From the UHGV virus genome UHGV-0182515: a stretch of 42,850 bases of DNA. One strand, given 5' to 3'. The stretch comes from a virus. The notes below the pieces were generated by a model. The model did not search any database. It saw only the letters and a list, made by a program, of their open reading frames with translations, and was not told where the DNA came from. A program made the position numbers and the translations under genes. This document shows, piece by piece, positions 8,551 through 41,318 of this stretch (positions are counted from its first letter, which is position 1; each line of letters starts with the position of its first letter).

Positions 8551-8739
8551 TTAAATTTCCTTCCATCCCCAATCAAGCGTTTCAAATGCTACATCACGCA
8601 TGTTTTCGTCTTTTTCGTCCTGATCCATTTCATTCCACTCATTCTCGGATAAGCCAAGATCATCGAGTGTTACAACTGTCTTTTTGCAAGAATGAATGTT
8701 TGCGCCGGAATCCAACCAAATTTCAAATTTACGTTCCAT
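8551..8739 (-). CDS. Hypothetical acidic protein in the ral position
   Basis: First gene downstream of N; 62 aa; no similarity to Ral recognised. Confidence 0.35.
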   Translation of the reverse strand: MERKFEIWLDSGANIHSCKKTVVTLDDLGLSENEWNEMDQDEKDENMRDVAFETLDWGWKEI

Positions 8740-8747
8740 ATATCACC

Positions 8748-9074
8748 TCAAATAAGTGGTTTGCTGCCTAATTTCATTTTCTGGCGACCAACACAAGTCA
8801 CACCCATTTCACTGCGTGGCTTGCTGTACCATGTGCGCTGATTCTTGCGCTCAATACGTTGCAGGTTGCTTTCAATCTGTTCGTGGTATTCAGCCAGCAC
8901 CGTAAGGTCTATCGGATTCAGTGCGCTTTCTACTCGTGATTTCGGTTTGCGATTCAGCGAGAGAATAGGGCGGTTAACTGGTTTTGCGTTTACCCCAACC
9001 AACAGGGGATTTGCTGCTTTCCATTGAGCCTGTTTCTCTGCGCGACGTTCGCGGCGGCGTGTTTGTGCATCCAT
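8748..9074 (-). CDS. N: Antitermination protein N
   Basis: MDAQTRRRERRAEKQAQWKAANPLLVGV..; the Arg-rich N-terminal motif and most of the sequence match lambda N. Confidence 0.9.
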   Translation of the reverse strand: MDAQTRRRERRAEKQAQWKAANPLLVGVNAKPVNRPILSLNRKPKSRVESALNPIDLTVLAEYHEQIESNLQRIERKNQRTWYSKPRSEMGVTCVGRQKMKLGSKPLI

Positions 9075-9257
9075 CTGGATTCTCCTGTCAGTTAGCTTTG
9101 GTGGTGTGGTGGCTGGAGTCGAACCAGCTTCCATCGGTGCGCTGCCGATTGGGTTACGCGCATCCTGCGGTTAGTTGTCTAGAATCTTCACCGCAAAACT
9201 ATTCCCTAGCTCGCCGTTGAGCTTCACCACACCCCAAAGCTTTCTGCTTTGAATGCC

Positions 9258-9288
9258 GCCCTTCTTCAGGGCTTAATTTTTAAGAGCC
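9258..9288 (-). promoter_or_regulatory. nutL (boxB GCCCTGAAGAAGGGC, boxA GGCTCTTAA)
   Basis: Minus-strand sequence GGCTCTTAAAAATTAAGCCCTGAAGAAGGGC; boxB hairpin identical to lambda nutL, boxA differs at one base. Confidence 0.85.
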
Positions 9289-9327
9289 TCACCTTCATGG
9301 TGGTTAGTGCGTCCTGCTGATGGCTAA

Positions 9328-9356
9328 ATAGTACGATTTGTACTTTATTGAGTCAA
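9328..9356 (-). promoter_or_regulatory. pL promoter (-35 TTGACT, 17-bp spacer, -10 TACTAT) with overlapping operator AGTACGATTTGTACT (9330-9344)
   Basis: Hexamers read on the minus strand; a perfect inverted repeat AGTAC-N5-GTACT overlaps the -10. Confidence 0.6.
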
Positions 9357-9420
9357 TACAAAATGTTCTAAATATAATTAGTTTTTTATAACGCTTTGTA
9401 TTTAATGGGTTTATATTTTG

Positions 9421-9450
9421 GAAAAAGAAAACCCGACGCTAAGGTCGGGT
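9421..9450 (-). terminator. Rho-independent terminator downstream of cI
   Basis: Stem acccgac/gtcgggt with a 6-nt loop, followed on the minus strand by TTTCTTTTT. Confidence 0.6.
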
Positions 9451-9481
9451 TATTGTTGTGTATTTTAGAGTTGTGAGGCTG

Positions 9482-10141
9482 TTAACTAAATGTCTCTTCA
9501 GGCCACTGGCTGGCGATAACTTTCCCTACTACGGAACAGCTATCATTGCATGGAATCATTGGATATTGCGGGTTTAGTGGCTGTAGGAACACCTGACCGC
9601 TATCCCTGATCAGTTTCTTGAAGGTAAACTCGTCACCACCAAGTCTGGCTATGCAGAAATCACCTGGCTCAACAGCCTGCTCAGGGTCAACGAGAATTAA
9701 CATCCCGTCAGGAAAGCTTGGCTTGGATCCTGTTGGCGCGGTCATGGAATTACCTTCAACTTCAAGCCAGAACGCACAATCACTGGCTTTTTTGGTTGTG
9801 CTGACCCATCTCTCCGCATCACCTTTGGTAAAGGTTCTAAGCTCAGGCGAGAACATCCCGGCCTGAACATGAGAAAAAACAGGGTACTCATATTGTTTTT
9901 TTAACGGGGGCAGAGAGTATTCGCCAACAGGTGAAAATGTACCGTCGTGGTTGAATGAGACGTTATCAATACCAAGGTATTTAAACACCACACCAATCTC
10001 GTCAAGAGATGGATGACGAGATCCGCGCAACCAGTGACCAATTCCACCCTGCGTCATACCAAGCTCTTCAGCTAACCTCTCTTGAGTTATGCCGAGCTCT
10101 TTCATTCTGGATCTAGCCAGTTCATACCATTTCATTTTCAT
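9482..10141 (-). CDS. cI: CI-type prophage repressor (heterologous HTH N-domain joined to a lambda-like S24 C-domain)
   Basis: C-terminal part [18 protein letters not shown]...EVEGNSM...FKKL... is near-identical to lambda CI (catalytic Ser and Lys present); N-terminal 90 aa are an unrelated HTH domain. Confidence 0.85.
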
Positions 10142-10150
10142 ACCATTATT

Positions 10151-10227
10151 ATTACGCTATGTACTAAAACCATCCATGCACAAGATGTATTTTTTTGTTT
10201 GCATTCTAAAAGTACATATCGTATTAT
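10151..10227. promoter_or_regulatory. oR/pR/pRM region: operator-like sites ATTACgctatGTACT (10151-10165) and AGTACatatcGTATT (10211-10225); pR -35 TTGCAT (10199-10204), -10 TATTAT (10222-10227)
   Basis: Two imperfect copies of the AGTAC-N5-GTACT palindrome seen at pL; the second overlaps the putative pR -10. Confidence 0.45.
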
Positions 10228-10253
10228 TGTTTCATGGTTACTATGGAGGGCAT

Positions 10254-10469
10254 ATGAGCAACCTACGAAAATATCGAGAGTCACTGAATATCTCTCAAAC
10301 AACACTTGCTAAGGCAGTTGGATGCACACAGGGAGCTATCGGACATTGGGAATCTGGTCGTCGCTTCCCAGACCTTAAAACATGCCGTGCTCTTGTTGAG
10401 TGCCTAAACAAGTTAGGCGCAAAAGTCAGTCTTGATGACGTGTTCCCGCCGGAACACAAAGCCGCTTAA
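10254..10469 (+). CDS. cro: Cro-type repressor (HTH, 71 aa)
   Basis: GGAGGG located 4 nt upstream of the ATG; HTH motif QTTLAKAVGCTQGAIGHWESG; divergent from cI. Confidence 0.75.
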   Translation: MSNLRKYRESLNISQTTLAKAVGCTQGAIGHWESGRRFPDLKTCRALVECLNKLGAKVSLDDVFPPEHKAA

Positions 10470-10477
10470 GACATTCT

Positions 10478-10509
10478 CGCTCTTACACATCACAGCCCTG
10501 AAAAAGGGC
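10478..10509 (+). promoter_or_regulatory. nutR (boxA CGCTCTTAC, boxB GCCCTGAAAAAGGGC), followed by a tR1-like region
   Basis: Sequence matches lambda nutR and the lambda cro-cII intergenic region. Confidence 0.85.
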
Positions 10510-10588
10510 ATCAAATTAAACCACACCTATGGTGTATGCATTTATTTGCATACATTCAATCAATTGTTATCTAAGGAAATACTTACAT

Positions 10589-10882
10589 ATGGTTCGTGCA
10601 AACAAACGCAACGAGGCTCTAAGAATCGAGAGTGCGTTGCTTAACAAAATCGCAATGCTTGGAACTGAGAAGACAGCGGAAGCTGTGGGAGTTGATAAGT
10701 CGCAGATCAGCAGGTGGAAGAGGGACTGGATTCCAAAGTTCTCAATGCTGCTTGCTGTTCTTGAATGGGGCGTCGTTGACGACGACATGGCTCGATTGGC
10801 ACGACAAGTTGCTTCGATTCTCACCAATAAAAAACGCCCGGCGGCAACCGAGCGTTCTGATCAAATACAAATGGAATTTTAA
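10589..10882 (+). CDS. cII: CII transcriptional activator
   Basis: MVRANKRNEALRIESALLNKIAMLGTEKTAEAVGVDKSQISRWKRDWIPKFSMLLAVLEWGV.. is essentially lambda CII. Confidence 0.9.
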   Translation: MVRANKRNEALRIESALLNKIAMLGTEKTAEAVGVDKSQISRWKRDWIPKFSMLLAVLEWGVVDDDMARLARQVASILTNKKRPAATERSDQIQMEF

Positions 10883-10904
10883 CAACATCCAACGAGGTAA
10901 TTAT

Positions 10905-11179: not shown

Positions 11180-12127
11180 ATGAGCAATACAGCAAAAATC
11201 TACGATTTCAGCGCCGCACACGAGCGCAGGAGCAACAGGATGGAGAACCAGAAAACTGGTTACATTCCGTTGTACCGGAGCATTCTGAAACAGTCATGGG
11301 CGAAAGATGTTTATCTTCGCACCCTGTGGGAAAACCTTCTCCTGAATGCCGCCAGAAAGCCATACAAAGCGAATTTCAAAGGTCATGAATGGCATCTGCA
11401 ACCCGGTCAACTGGTTGTGACAGCAGCTGATTTAGGTCTTCAGTTATGCGACAGACATGGCAAGCCAGCAAGCCGTGATCAGGTTGAGCGGATGCTTCAG
11501 GTTTTTGTGAAAGAAGGGATGATCTCCATTGATGGAGAGAAGCAAAAAGGTCGTGTGATCACCATCACAAATTACCATGAATATGCTCAAAAAATGGACA
11601 ATTTACCCGCACATGATGCCGCACAAACAACCGCACATGATGCCGCACATGACGAAGCCAGTAATGGCGCAGCTTTCAGCGCACATTCCGCACATGAAAG
11701 CGCACATGAAGCCGCACAAACAACCGCACATCATGAACAAGAAGGTATTAACAAGAATATAAATAATACCCCCCTACCCCCCAATGGGGGCGGCGATGGG
11801 CAGGTTAAACCTGAACGTCGCAAGGCAGAACGAATCGACTACGAATCCTTCCTGAACGCCTACAACACCGAAGTCGGTGACAGACTTCCACATGCTGTTG
11901 CAGTCAACGAGAAACGCAAACGCCGCCTGAAGAAAATCATCCCGCAACTGAAAACGCCAAACGTGGACGGTTTCAGAGCGTATGTCAGGGCGTTTGTGCA
12001 TCAGGCCAAGCCGTTTTACTTCGGAGACAACGACACGGGCTGGACGGCTGATTTTGATTACCTGTTGAGGGAAGATTCGTTAACGGGAGTACGGGAAGGG
12101 AAGTTTGCAGACAGGGGGATTGCATGA
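11180..12127 (+). CDS. Replication initiator, O-like (contains the origin repeats)
   Basis: N-terminus [11 protein letters not shown] resembles lambda O (MTNTAKILNF..); the internal AH/AQ-rich segment is encoded by tandem DNA repeats. Confidence 0.7.
11606..11770. repeat. Putative replication origin: tandem about 12-bp iterons (CCGCACATGAxx) in two clusters followed by an AT-rich block
   Basis: Repeats CCGCACATGATG / CCGCACAAACAA / CCGCACATGACG etc. read directly; AT-rich aacaagaaggtattaacaagaatataaataata follows. Confidence 0.55.
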
Positions 12128-34605: not shown

Positions 34606-35144
34606 AATTGTATACCGAGATGGGCAAGAACAGATGGATGTATATCAACAAGCTTTTCGCCAAGATGTTCTGTTGGAGGTGGATAATCTTTGCCTTGGTT
34701 TCTTACGGTTATAGGCATAGTTGTTGCTGGATGAAACTCAACTATCATAGGGTCGCCTTCGTATTTTGCTATTTTCCCTGTTGAATCAATGATTAACTCT
34801 TTAATATAATGGCTTCTTGCTCCAGGAAATGCCCCAAGAGTAGTATAAGGAGGTTCAAGTTTTGAGATTTCCATAGTGGAATGATGATCAGCATTTCTTG
34901 CTTGGTGAAGGTAAGCAAGTGTTTTGTCTGTTTTTCTAAGCATGAACTTTTGGTTGAAGTGGCTGCTAAATTTTCCACTAACCGGCTTTGTTGCACAGAG
35001 CAACTTACTGAAAGACTTTTCTATATGCCCAAGACATTCTCGCCAGTGCATTTCAAAATCATCATGGTTTGTAGATGATTTCATCTGCTCTAGGCACTTT
35101 TTAGCTGCGATGATTTCTTTTTTTGCTGGGTTGTAATCGATCAT
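34563..35144 (-). CDS. Unknown cytoplasmic protein (193 aa) translationally coupled to mnt
   Basis: Start ATG overlaps the mnt stop (ATGA at 35141-35144); AT-rich; no recognised domain. Confidence 0.55.
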   Translation of the reverse strand: MIDYNPAKKEIIAAKKCLEQMKSSTNHDDFEMHWRECLGHIEKSFSKLLCATKPVSGKFSSHFNQKFMLRKTDKTLAYLHQARNADHHSTMEISKLEPPYTTLGAFPGARSHYIKELIIDSTGKIAKYEGDPMIVEFHPATTMPITVRNQGKDYPPPTEHLGEKLVDIHPSVLAHLGIQFYEKWIDESCATFR

Positions 35145-35395
35145 TTTGCATCCTTGCCATACATGTTTTTAAGTGTCTCAAATACCACAGACTTGAACTG
35201 TTCAGCCTGCATCTCGGCTAATCGTTCAGCTTCATTGCGATAACCTTTTACAGGAGATGGTCTCGATAGAGCATCTTGGACGATTTGCAACAATTCTGAG
35301 TTCATTGATCTACCATTTGACTCTGCTCTGTATTTTAATTTTTCTCTTACTTCCAAAGGCATGCGGAAGTTAAAGTGCGGATCATCTCTAGCCAT
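35141..35395 (-). CDS. mnt: Mnt repressor (ribbon-helix-helix)
   Basis: MARDDPHFNFRMPLEVREKLKYRAESNGRSMNSELLQIVQDAL.. matches P22 Mnt. Confidence 0.9.
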   Translation of the reverse strand: MARDDPHFNFRMPLEVREKLKYRAESNGRSMNSELLQIVQDALSRPSPVKGYRNEAERLAEMQAEQFKSVVFETLKNMYGKDAK

Positions 35396-35417
35396 GCCAT
35401 CACTCCAAGTTAGTGTA

Positions 35418-35470
35418 TTGACATGATAGAAGCACTCTACTATATTCTCAATAGGTCCACCGTGGACCTA
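35418..35470. promoter_or_regulatory. Pant promoter (-35 TTGACA 35418-35423, -10 TATATT 35441-35446), Arc operator (35423-35443) and Mnt operator palindrome AGGTCCACCGTGGACCT (35454-35470)
   Basis: Canonical hexamers with 17-bp spacing; the 21-bp arc operator lies between them; a 17-bp perfect palindrome follows. Confidence 0.8.
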
Positions 35471-35485
35471 TATTGTGAGGTGAAC

Positions 35486-35647
35486 ATGAAAGGAATGAGC
35501 AAAATGCCGCAGTTCAATTTGCGGTGGCCTAAAGAAGTATTGGATTTGGTACGCAAGGTGGCGGAAGAGAATGGTCGGTCTGTTAACTCTGAGATTTATC
35601 AGAGAGTAATGGACAGCTTTAAGAAGGAAGGGCGTATTGGCGCGTAA
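35486..35647 (+). CDS. arc: Arc repressor (ribbon-helix-helix)
   Basis: [53 protein letters not shown] matches P22 Arc. Confidence 0.9.
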
Positions 35648-35715
35648 AGTTGAAGCCCCAACTGCGGGAACAGTCAGGGCTTCTGTTGTCAGTAAATTCG
35701 TGGAGAAAAACCAAC

Positions 35716-36618
35716 ATGAATAGTATAGCAATTTTAGAAGCAGTGAACACCTCTTACGTACCTTTCAATGGTCAGCAGATTATCACCGCCATGACTGCCG
35801 GAGTTGCATATGTTGCGATGAAGCCAATCGTTGAAAACCTTGGAATGAGCTGGTCAACGCAGCAAACAAAACTCATGAAGCAGATTAGCAAATTCAACTG
35901 TGTTCATATGAACATGGTTGCCGCTGATGGTAAGCTTCGTAAGCTACTCTTCCTTCCTTTGAAGAAGTTAAATGGATGGCTGTTCAGCATCAACCCTGAG
36001 AAAGTTCGTGCTGACATTCGCGATAAACTGATTCAGTACCAGGAAGAATGCTTTACTGTGCTGCATGACTACTGGACGAAGGGAAAGGCAGAAAATGCAC
36101 GTAAGAAAACATCTGTTGATGACAGGACTCCGCTTCGTGATGCTGTAAATATGCTAGTCAGCAAAAAGCATCTAATGTACCCAGAAGCTTATGCAATGAT
36201 TCATCAGCGTTTCAACGTGGAAAGTATTGAAGAGCTTGATTCATCTCAGATACCGCAAGCAGTAGAGTACATCCACAGGGTAGTGCTTGAAGGCGAGTTC
36301 ATCGGAAAACAAGAGAAGAAAACCAACGAGCTTTCTGCAAAAGAAGCAAACAGCCTTGTATGGTTATGGGATTATGCCAACCGCTCACAGGCATTATTCC
36401 GCGAACTGTATCCGGCGCTAAAACAAATTCAATCGAACTATTCAGGCAGATGCTACGACTACGGTCATGAGTTCTCGTATGTTATCGGAATGGCGAGAGA
36501 CGTTTTAATCAATCACACACGAGATGTTGATATCAATGAGCCAGACGGACCAACGAATCTTTCCGCATGGATGAGACTTAAGAATAAAGAATTACCTCCT
36601 TCAGTACATAACTACTGA
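35716..36618 (+). CDS. ant: Antirepressor Ant
   Basis: [26 protein letters not shown]..; 300 aa, P22 Ant-like. Confidence 0.85.
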
Positions 36619-41081: not shown

Positions 41082-41243
41082 GGGTAAAAATCCGGTGGGT
41101 AAAATTATTTTATCCACTTTTTACCCGTCATGGAGTGCGGCTGTCAACGATCTGACGTGAACCATTACGAACTGTAAATCTACGGAAGGCTTGATATTCA
41201 GGGGATTTTGCGGACTGCTACGGATGGGAGCGAACTGATAAAT

Positions 41244-41258
41244 GGTGTCCCCTGCAGG
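41244..41258. repeat. attL core candidate (15 bp, identical to 992-1006), the 3' end of argW
   Basis: Exact direct repeat read from the sequence. Confidence 0.6.
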
Positions 41259-41318
41259 AATCGAACCTGCAATTAGCCCTTAGGAGGGGCTCGTTATATC
41301 CATTTAACTAAGAGGACA
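41244..41318 (-). tRNA. argW: tRNA-Arg (anticodon CCU)
   Basis: Reverse complement GTCCTCTTAGTTAAATGGATATAACGAGCCCCTCCTAAGGGCTAATTGCAGGTTCGATTCCTGCAGGGGACACCA folds as a cloverleaf with 7-bp acceptor stem, T-loop GGTTCGATTCC, anticodon loop CUCCUAA and CCA end. Confidence 0.85.

Follow-up and report, generated by a model that had tools for sequence, protein, structure and literature searches.

A probable VT2-Sakai-type immunity switch between lambda-type flanks in a CUS-3/P22-like Escherichia coli prophage

Genes and control sites of the region

The window, that is, the whole stretch of 42,850 nucleotides that was analysed, is a chromosomal prophage adjoining tRNA-Arg(CCT). Its control region has the bipartite OL/OR architecture of lambdoid phages, with divergent cI and cro genes, three predicted operators over PR/PRM and three over PL, and is flanked by lambda-type N and nutL on the left and by lambda-type nutR, cII and PRE on the right (Table 1). 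Alignment of the region with lambda gave DNA identities of 84% over 8773-9322, 93.8% over 9488-9892 and 97.3% over 10478-10878; across 9323-9423 and 9893-10477, lambda homology was absent from this alignment. The left-hand homology starts at about 9322, close to the predicted start of the PL transcript. N is identical to lambda N at 97 of 108 residues, including all of its Arg-rich motif. In direct alignment, the boxB hairpin of nutL, which the scan for hairpins also picked up, is identical to that of lambda and its boxA differs at one base; both boxA and the boxB hairpin of nutR are identical to lambda's. The first-pass annotation had described N, nutL, nutR, cII, the cro-cII intergenic stretch and the CI C-terminal domain as lambda-like, and the CI N-terminal domain and Cro as unlike lambda; these alignments, and those of CI and Cro given below, bear it out.

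Table 1. Coordinates of genes and predicted control sites in the window (rank, position among 42,834 scored with a matrix from ST64T sites)
Feature	Position	Strand	Details
N antiterminator, lambda type	8748-9074	-	Pfam N36, E = 2.9e-25
nutL	9258-9288	-	boxA GGCTCTTA 9281-9288; boxB GCCCTGAAGAAGGGC 9258-9272
PL	9328-9356	-	-35 TTGACT 9351-9356; -10 TACTAT 9328-9333; scan match 9/12; 17-nt spacer
OL1 (predicted) TAGTACGATTTGTACTT	9329-9345		perfect palindrome; rank 2; overlaps PL -10 and spacer
OL2 (predicted) CAATACAAAATGTTCTA	9354-9370		two mismatches; rank 3; overlaps PL -35
OL3 (predicted) TATAACGCTTTGTATTT	9387-9403		weakest site; rank 9; putative operator in VT2-Sakai annotation
Intrinsic terminator of PRM/PRE cI transcript	9421-9451	-	8-pair stem and T-run
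cI repressor	9482-10141	-	219 aa, or 217 aa from a translation start at 10135
PRM (predicted)	10148-10176	-	-35 TGGATG 10171-10176; -10 AATAAT 10148-10153; read from sequence
OR3 (predicted) TATTACGCTATGTACTA	10150-10166		rank 4; overlaps PRM -10 and spacer
OR2 (predicted) ATGCACAAGATGTATTT	10176-10192		rank 5; abuts PRM -35
PR	10198-10227	+	-35 TTTGCA; -10 TATTAT; scan match 9/12
OR1 (predicted) AAGTACATATCGTATTA	10210-10226		rank 1; overlaps PR spacer and -10
cro	10254-10469	+	71-aa HTH_3 protein; Pfam HTH_3, E = 1.4e-12
nutR, lambda type	10478-10509	+	boxA CGCTCTTA 10478-10485; boxB 10495-10509
cII	10589-10882	+	Pfam Phage_CII, E = 5e-48; 95/97 identical to lambda cII
PRE -35 repeats	10598-10611	-	TTGC-N6-TTGC, inside cII
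immI region	35141-36618		
immI, mnt	35141-35395	-	
immI, arc	35486-35647	+	
immI, sar RNA	35648-35715	-	
immI, ant	35716-36618	+	

A second immunity region, a P22-type immI elsewhere in the prophage, was identified by the Rfam sar family (91 bits) and by the Pfam families Arc/Repressor_Mnt, Arc and P22_AR_N/P22_AR_C. A tRNA-like element lies in the N leader, where Rfam gave a sub-threshold tmRNA-like match, the only match to a curated RNA family over 8700-10900; ARAGORN called no tRNA in the N leader, either of the window or of five homologous loci.

CI combines HTH_3 (residues 11-58, E = 1.5e-10) with Peptidase_S24 (residues 87-209, E = 8.9e-29), the domain pair of the self-cleaving LexA/lambda-CI (S24) family. 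Residues 84-219 are identical to lambda CI 102-237 at 133 of 136 positions, and the N-terminal domain at about 21 of 83 (~25%); compared with lambda CI, the HTH domain is shorter and has no long N-terminal arm. The scissile bond and catalytic dyad of lambda (A112-G113, S150 and K193) align with A94-G95, S132 and K175. Aligned with lambda CI, the protein is chimeric: residues 1-83 form an HTH domain of the phage L kind with a linker, residues 84-219 form a lambda-type S24 domain, and the junction falls in the linker just ahead of the Ala-Gly cleavage site. Within the C-terminal domain, nucleotide divergence from lambda and VT2-Sakai reaches 7-9% with only 3 amino acid changes relative to lambda, which points to purifying selection. 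A PDB sequence search with the N-terminal domain returned distant HTH matches only; 434 repressor chains match both this domain and Cro marginally (E 0.1-0.4).

Cro is an HTH_3 protein, whereas lambda Cro belongs to another fold family, and the two have no meaningful similarity (a global alignment of 77 columns has 18 identities). Judged from its likeness to the CI N-terminal domain (35% identity, E = 7e-13) and from the recognition-helix motif TQGxIGHWxxG common to both, Cro is a paralogue of that domain. The PDB search with Cro gave one match that is unexplained, to a 'lambda repressor-like protein' of 82 aa (28tn, E = 2.4e-16).

A generic promoter scan of 8700-10900 yielded 3 sites against 3.2 expected, and what backs the PL and PR calls is their position over operators. 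The scan made no PRM call; the PRM hexamers are weak. The predicted PRM start falls at or near the cI ATG (10141), and the cI mRNA, as in lambda, is probably leaderless. Thirty nucleotides past the cI stop lies a hairpin (9430-9451) with its T-run on the minus strand, 88.9% identical over 36 nt to lambda 35799-35834, just downstream of rexB; in its stem a G:C pair is replaced by A:T, a compensatory change. Lambda has rexA/rexB, and the window ORF list holds no rex-sized ORF between cI and OL; the earlier description of a terminator directly after cI and no rex genes was thus correct, and the hairpin is a homologue of lambda's post-rexB terminator.

The pattern AGTAC-N5-GTACT, allowing at most one mismatch, occurs 5 times in the window against 0.52 expected, a count not attained in any of 100 shuffles. 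The first-pass annotation had proposed three of these matches (9330-9344, perfect, 10151-10165 and 10211-10225) as palindromic operators. They stand, as parts of OL1, OR3 and OR1, but the set was incomplete: six pseudo-palindromic 17-bp sites are predicted, with OL2, OL3 and OR2 having been missed, and their consensus is about T-A-(G/A)-T-A-C-N5-G-T-A-(C/T)-T-(A/T). With a matrix built solely from the sites of Salmonella phage ST64T, the six rank 1, 2, 3, 4, 5 and 9 among the 42,834 positions of the window. In a comparison of 8-10 relatives, columns within half-sites are variable far less often than other columns (5/60 vs. 46/149, Fisher p = 2.7e-4): OL2 varies in its central bases but not in its half-sites across 8 relatives, the sole OR3 half-site variant among 10 sequences is that of 2B8 (GTACT to GTATT), and one OL3 half-site base differs among relatives. 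A literal search of 8 million papers for five of the operator strings found no match. The idea that OL is a direct duplicate of OR (spacings of 25/33 and 26/34, both on the plus strand) was dropped, as no homology outside the operators could be seen by eye.

Relation to VT2-Sakai, phage L and other immunity types

Comparison of CI and Cro with known immunity types, which the first-pass annotation had proposed as a check, shows a match to the VT2-Sakai (Sp5) type. The cI-cro DNA of the Stx2 phage VT2-Sakai (AP000422), the Stx1 phage and Stx2 II (AP005153/4), Nil2 and 2851 is 92-93% identical to that of the window, and YYZ-2008 and the PA-series Stx2a phages are of the same immunity type as VT2-Sakai. 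The window CI is identical to that of Nil2 at 206 of 217 residues and the window Cro to that of the Stx1 phage at 70 of 71, with no differences in the recognition helices TQGGIGHW and TQGAIGHW in these two comparisons. The VT2-Sakai CI joins its lambda-type C-terminal domain at the same junction, a hybrid structure already noted by Fattah et al. 2000 according to a passage in PMC10742460.

GenBank entries AP000422 and AP005153 list all six sites as putative operators (OL1, for one, in both VT2-Sakai and the Stx1 phage), and the window sites pair with them one-to-one. The VT2-Sakai entry also marks, likewise as putative, a 'major leftward promoter', a 'major rightward promoter' and a 'maintenance promoter' at the positions of PL, PR and the predicted PRM. 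Annotated operator, promoter and terminator positions in VT2-Sakai, the Stx1 phage and Nil2 are identical to those of the window. The operators of VT2-Sakai differ from the window's in the central 5 bp and the flanks and at one base of an OL3 half-site (ATAAC in the window, ACAAC in VT2-Sakai), and the OL region as a whole is about 79% identical. The surroundings differ: by annotation, VT2-Sakai has N like 933W/H-19B and cII like 933W/HK022, whereas those of the window are lambda-type, and two ORFs (H0092 and H0093) lie between its cI and the terminator, whereas the window has none, so that OL and OR are about 0.85 kb apart compared with about 2.3 kb in VT2-Sakai.

The slot after cI carries different cargo in different phages and is empty in the window. 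For the cargo genes of the relatives, PADLOC and Pfam gave no firm defence assignment; they contain one NYN domain, and an ORF of 2B8 weakly matches HEC-09. Phages recovered as viable particles (720R6, 683R2, Dewey and Louie) also have the rex-less form, with about 99% identity over the 1.2-kb region, and 80% or more of the region is present in 768 out of 5,426 complete genomes of E. coli.

The HTH head, cro and operators are related, by sequence comparison, to immC of phages L and ST64T, whose host is Salmonella. The ST64T/L repressor shares 33 of 58 residues of the HTH core and the helix-3 motif with the window CI, and 50 of 71 residues are identical between ST64T Cro and the window Cro. The operator consensus, the 26/34 spacing in OR, the 25-bp OL1-OL2 spacing and the distance of 8 nt between OR3 and the repressor ATG are likewise the same. 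The repressor C-terminal domain of ST64T/L is not lambda-type (61/139 identical to the window CI), and on this account the window region is a relative of the L/ST64T module and not a member of it. Nor does the region belong to imm-lambda: it shares the tripartite OL and OR of 17-bp operators with lambda, but the DNA-binding domain of CI, Cro and the operators are not those of lambda. The classical case of an immunity module swapped into lambda flanks is imm434, from phage 434, in which Cro is likewise homologous to the repressor HTH and operators are shared. The 434 operators (ACAA-N6-TTGT) and sequences are unrelated to those of the window, and the C-terminal domain of the 434 repressor is not lambda's.

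Taken together, these comparisons indicate that the region is very probably immC, the lysis-lysogeny or primary immunity switch, of a CUS-3/P22-like E. coli prophage, and that its cassette is, with the same high probability, a cI-OR-cro plus OL/PL set of the VT2-Sakai type between lambda-type flanks. The hybrid CI and operator structure described in the first-pass annotation stands; the immunity type is not a new one. The cassette is known and frequent among E. coli, and its operators had been annotated in VT2-Sakai before, which makes the switch real but ordinary.

Operator use and specificity relative to lambda

Operator spacing in the window is 26/34 bp in OR and 25/33 bp in OL, compared with 23/24 bp and 24/20 bp in lambda, and lambda-style OR1-OR2 cooperativity therefore cannot be assumed. 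On a reading that is possible but that we disfavour, only some of the sites work (e.g., OL1, OL2, OR1 and OR3) and pairwise cooperativity of the lambda kind is lacking. Equally possible, and equally disfavoured, is its corollary that the logic of the switch is nearer to that of 933W than to that of lambda despite the lambda-type C-terminal domain; a passage in PMC3317979 reports the 933W repressor to be non-cooperative in binding. The matches are weakest at OR2 and OL3, which deviate from the ideal palindrome at 3 positions each, the PR -35 is not covered by OR2, which lies upstream of it, and the OR1-OR2 spacing is not fixed across phages, being 34 bp in the window, 33 bp in 720R6, Dewey and phi458, and 32 bp in VT2-Sakai. 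Conversely, the half-sites of OR2 are conserved among the relatives while its centre and flanks vary, and ST64T, at about 64% DNA identity to the window, still keeps a site at the 26/34 spacing. Relative to the predicted PRM start, OR2 is centred at about -43 (-42 in lambda), which would suit activation, and the 34 bp between OR1 and OR2 exceed the 24 bp of lambda by about one helical turn, which would roughly keep the relative helical phase of the two sites.

A distinct immunity specificity, as the first-pass annotation predicted, is what operator scoring suggests: on the matrix of the window phage, the lambda operators score -8.8 to +3.1, compared with 13.6-19.7 for the phage's own sites. 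This prediction is at odds with cross-immunity between VT2-Sakai and lambda, which Fattah et al. 2000 observed according to the secondary account in a passage of PMC10742460; operator scoring does not predict it, and it conflicts with a simple picture of distinct specificity. Lambda CI and the window CI might cross-act, by weak cross-binding of operators or by mixed dimers or tetramers, although we consider this improbable; the expected outcome, partial cross-immunity or dominant-negative interference, is no more probable. Beside the relayed cross-immunity, the affinity of lambda CI for VT2-Sakai operators (apparent KD 3.7-6.4 uM; PMC10742460) argues for cross-action, as do the near-identity of the C-terminal domains (133/136), some lambda-like HTH residues (lambda helix 3, GMGQSGVGALFNG, compared with 13 residues of the window CI) and the T1, A2, A5 and C6 that the half-sites share with lambda TATCAC. 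The low scores of the lambda operators argue against it. So do the reported affinities, which are 10-25x weaker than those for lambda OR1/OL1 in the same assay (PMC10742460), lie close to that for lambda's weakest site and may approach non-specific binding. Mixed dimers, too, should lessen immunity and would not be a source of it. The literature search turned up no direct binding, footprint or immunity data for a window-type CI on its own operators; the EMSA data that it gave use lambda CI alone.

It is very improbable that decay in a cryptic prophage has left the cassette unable to work as a switch, as the location beside a chromosomal tRNA gene and the empty post-cI slot might suggest, given that all ORFs are intact, the 1.2-kb region is nearly identical to that of phages isolated as particles, the CI C-terminal domain is under purifying selection and the terminator stem carries a compensatory change.

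Predicted working of the switch and its meaning

In a working primary immunity switch of this type, which is the reading we favour, CI dimers would bind the six predicted sites via the HTH domain, and the lambda-type C-terminal domain would provide dimerisation and probably dimer-dimer cooperativity, and may permit OL-OR looping over about 0.85 kb. Self-cleavage of CI at A94-G95 by S132 and K175, stimulated by RecA, is the proposed route by which SOS induction would remove repression; Sp5, which has the same CI type, is strongly inducible by mitomycin (Stx2 titre 256 to 40,000; PMC4645166). Cro, with the same recognition-helix motif, would bind the same sites and shut PRM, and cII would activate a lambda-type PRE and so establish repression. 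The cI transcript would end at the homologue of the lambda post-rexB terminator, with the cargo slot ahead of it empty, and the mnt-arc-ant-sar region may add an antirepressor layer.

By itself, the finding is of little weight, being a correct rediscovery of a catalogued immunity type. It is nevertheless a clean natural case of domain and module shuffling, in which the HTH head, OR, cro and OL/PL move as a set, and the lambda-type C-terminal domain, terminator and flanks stay. The combination of a lambda C-terminal domain with a head and operator geometry of the phage L lineage raises the proposal, which we regard as unlikely, that CI uses the lambda cooperativity and looping surfaces in a rewired manner and joins lambda-type CIs from other prophages of the same cell in mixed dimers, tetramers or octamers. 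It is OR2-OR3 and OL1-OL2 that have short, lambda-like spacings; that of OR1-OR2 exceeds lambda's by about one helical turn. If true, mixed oligomers could explain the VT2-Sakai/lambda cross-immunity or cause dominant-negative cross-induction, and would imply widespread cross-talk among prophages, including Stx phages, in view of the number of genomes that carry the region. The predictive value of the assignment lies in homoimmunity: the phage is predicted to be homoimmune with VT2-Sakai/Sp5, the Stx1 phage, Stx2 II, Nil2 and 2851, that is, a non-Stx P22-like prophage should be homoimmune with Stx2a and Stx1 phages of the Sp5 type, and its carriers may therefore resist lysogenic conversion by these phages, or co-repress them.

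Mosaic structure and operators of the immunity region

The CI repressor consists of an HTH_3 and a Peptidase_S24 domain and is identical to lambda CI at 154/237 positions overall (65%), with 133 of 136 residues identical between its residues 84-219 and lambda CI 102-237 vs. only about 21 identities in the N-terminal 83 residues. The 71-aa Cro belongs to HTH_3 and is unrelated to its lambda namesake. DNA identity to lambda is 84% at 8773-9322, 93.8% at 9488-9892 and 97.3% at 10478-10878; N is identical to its lambda counterpart at 97/108 residues and cII at 95/97, the boxB hairpins of nutL and nutR are identical to those of lambda, and boxA differs by one base in nutL and not at all in nutR. 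These comparisons bear out the first-pass annotation, which had described the CI C-terminal domain, N, nutL, nutR and cII as lambda-like and the CI HTH domain and Cro as different. Two segments are foreign relative to lambda, 9323-9423 (OL and PL) and 9893-10477 (cI head, OR and cro). The left boundary is close to where PL transcription is predicted to start, the right one 9 nt past the cro stop, and the internal one in the CI linker, at the same junction as in the Stx2 phage VT2-Sakai (Sp5; AP000422). The C-terminal-domain alleles are roughly equidistant at the nucleotide level (383/411 identities for the window and lambda, 375/411 for the window and VT2-Sakai, 381/411 for VT2-Sakai and lambda), and only 3 amino-acid changes separate the window's domain from that of lambda, which argues that the CI fusion is old and under purifying selection.

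Allowing at most one mismatch, the pattern AGTAC-N5-GTACT has five matches in 42.8 kb, compared to 0.52 expected, and three of the five are the sites previously proposed at PL (9330-9344) and between cI and cro (10151-10165 and 10211-10225). That proposal was right in structure and incomplete in number: there are six putative operators, three at OL and three at OR, as there are putative 17-bp operators in the GenBank annotations of VT2-Sakai and of an Stx1 phage (AP005153). The half-sites of the window's six operators end in AC in 12/12 cases and carry A at the second position in 11/12. When a weight matrix was built from six sites of Salmonella phage ST64T only, the immunity DNA of which is only ~64% identical to that of the window, the six operators ranked 1, 2, 3, 4, 5 and 9 among 42,834 positions; the OR centre spacings of 26 and 34 bp and the OL1-OL2 spacing of 25 bp are common to both. 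Among 8-10 related phages, 5/60 columns were variable in half-sites vs. 46/149 in other intergenic positions (Fisher p = 2.7 × 10−4), a conservative estimate, since the count for half-sites is raised by a gap in the alignment; spacers and the central 5 bp of the sites are freely variable. Cross-validation and conservation, two independent tests, support the predicted sites.

Features of the prophage and of the slot after cI in related phages
Feature	Position	Strand	Remark
N	8748-9074	minus	
nutL	9258-9288		
PL	-35 9351-9356; -10 9328-9333		generic promoter scan
OL1, putative	9329-9345		TAGTACGATTTGTACTT
OL2, putative	9354-9370		CAATACAAAATGTTCTA
OL3, putative	9387-9403		TATAACGCTTTGTATTT
Terminator hairpin	9430-9451		between PL and cI
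cI	9482-10141	minus	
OR3, putative	10150-10166		TATTACGCTATGTACTA
OR2, putative	10176-10192		ATGCACAAGATGTATTT
OR1, putative	10210-10226		AAGTACATATCGTATTA
cro	10254-10469		right of cI-cro intergenic region
nutR	10478-10509		
cII	10589-10882		contains PRE TTGC-N6-TTGC repeats
immI (mnt, arc, sar antisense RNA, ant antirepressor)	35141-36618		sar by Rfam, 91 bits
tRNA-Arg (anticodon CCT)	41243-41317	minus	near window right end
Slot ORF, VT2-Sakai	1164-1685 of record L005		173 aa
Slot ORF, 2B8	1610-2467 of record L009		285 aa, NYN domain; weak PADLOC HEC-09 match
Slot ORF, phi458	1662-2708 of record L007		348 aa

A generic scan calls PL and PR, with OL1 and OR1 spanning the spacer and -10 of the respective promoter. 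The predicted cI promoter PRM (-35 TGGATG, 10171-10176; -10 AATAAT, 10148-10153; 17-nt spacer) is consistent in position with the VT2-Sakai annotation. It would start transcription at or near the cI ATG (10141), yielding a leaderless mRNA as in lambda, with the OR2 centre at about -43 (vs. -42 in lambda) and the -10 covered by OR3. OR2 appears to lie upstream of the PR -35, whereas in lambda it lies over it; the OR1-OR2 spacing (34 bp in the window, 33 in 720R6, Dewey and phi458, 32 in VT2-Sakai) is roughly one helical turn longer than the 24 bp of lambda.

Origin and specificity of the CI head and Cro

The CI head is paralogous to Cro (35% identity, E = 7 × 10−13), whose recognition helix is TQGAIGHWESG. 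The nearest different relatives of both, missed in the first reading, are c2 and cro of Salmonella phages L and ST64T: the HTH core is identical at 33/58 residues and Cro at 50/71, and operator consensus and spacing match, whereas the repressor C-terminal domain is identical at only 61/139. CI thus combines a head of the L type with a lambda-type body and is fairly described as a 'hybrid'. Separately, an 82-aa 'lambda repressor-like protein' (PDB 28tn, chain A), a solved structure of unstated origin, matches Cro residues 1-69 (E = 2.4 × 10−16), including the C-terminal DDVFPP motif, and could be a template for this Cro family.

On a matrix of the window's operators, the six lambda operators score -8.8 to +3.1 vs. 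13.6-19.7 for the window's own sites, so that heteroimmunity towards lambda would be expected. Half-site positions T1, A2, A5 and C6 are common to the two systems, and the two Gln residues that read A2 in the lambda repressor-operator crystal structures are also present in the window's CI. The expectation has a minor rival in the cross-immunity between VT2-Sakai and lambda reported by Fattah et al. 2000, as relayed in PMC10742460, against which the low matrix scores of lambda's operators speak. The same relayed account gives VT2-Sakai and lambda CI similarity as high C-terminally and low N-terminally. Sedhom and Solomon 2023 measured apparent KD values of 3.7-6.4 uM for lambda CI on the six VT2-Sakai operators, and of 0.21, 0.35 and 3.07 uM on lambda OL1, OR1 and OR3, respectively (PMC10742460); our literature search found no report of cognate CI binding.

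The slot after cI and the distribution of the cassette

As first annotated, a terminator directly follows cI: only 30 nt separate it from the cI stop, leaving no rex genes at this position, and the hairpin (9424-9459) can be aligned at 88.9% identity with the terminator immediately 3' of lambda rexB, with a compensatory change in the stem. The cargo between cI and this conserved terminator differs from phage to phage, comprising rexA and rexB in lambda, two small ORFs in VT2-Sakai and YYZ-2008, a 285-aa ORF in 2B8 and EC.P3, and a 348-aa ORF in phi458; it is empty in the window, 720R6, Dewey and Louie, and the empty slot leaves OL and OR ~0.85 kb apart. The missing rex genes thus reflect a variable cargo slot in its empty state. 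The slot ORFs of VT2-Sakai, 2B8 and phi458 are unrelated cargo genes that may act in exclusion or defence and would be transcribed together with cI.

The cassette itself is not new. VT2-Sakai/Sp5, the Stx1 phage, Stx2 II, Nil2, 2851, YYZ-2008 and many Stx2a phages of the PA series match its cI-cro stretch at 92-93% identity, and the complete arrangement without rex recurs at ~99% identity in vB_EcoP-720R6, 683R2, Dewey and Louie, all of them isolated phages. Among 5,426 complete E. coli genomes, 768 contain at least 80% of 9300-10500, and 253 records of chromosomes or plasmids match it at 95% identity or more. In Fagerlund et al. 2022, Clade I holds those CIs of Stx phages that come nearest to lambda CI, with 61% overall identity (PMC8951638); this is very probably the window's type given its 65% identity.

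The N leader and the prophage as a whole

Between nutL and the N start codon (9100-9235, minus strand), a tRNA-like element replaces the interior of the lambda N-leader hairpin. It comprises a 9-bp acceptor-like stem, a D-like arm, a long central domain, an extra hairpin and a GGTTCGACTCC T-arm, with a fold z-score of -4.9; ARAGORN called no tRNA in the N leader, and Rfam gave only a sub-threshold tmRNA-like match. Homologues occur in 92 phage records, including the N leader of the Salmonella P22-like phage BIS08P22, E. coli PhiR5_2, and Skate-like Salmonella phages, where they adjoin tRNA genes and are once annotated 'tRNA-Ser'. Only 16 of 5,426 complete E. coli genomes carry the element, and the 720R6 leader, near-identical in other respects, lacks it. 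In an alignment of 6 sequences, 8 of 35 pairs show compensatory changes. The element might swap RNase III processing of N mRNA for tRNA-type processing; our literature search found no description of a tRNA-like N-leader element.

To the right, a strong terminator hairpin at the cII end (10831-10858, minus strand) corresponds to the lambda oop RNA terminator, judging by position and the 97% identity of the stretch to lambda. Tandem degenerate repeats (CCGCACATGATGCCGCACAAACAA...; 11600-11745) inside an O-like replication gene (11180-12127) encode AAH/AAQ-rich peptide repeats and, as in lambda O, probably represent iterons of the origin inside the initiator gene.

CUS-3, vB_EcoP-720R6 and Kapi1 are the best phage matches of the window, a prophage of the CUS-3/P22-like (Lederbergvirus) type beside a tRNA-Arg(CCT) gene that is probably its attachment site; CUS-3 integrates at argW. 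The P22-type immI region is complete (mnt, arc, sar RNA and ant), and the immunity of the prophage is therefore bipartite, with an antirepressor that is presumably able to override CI repression too.
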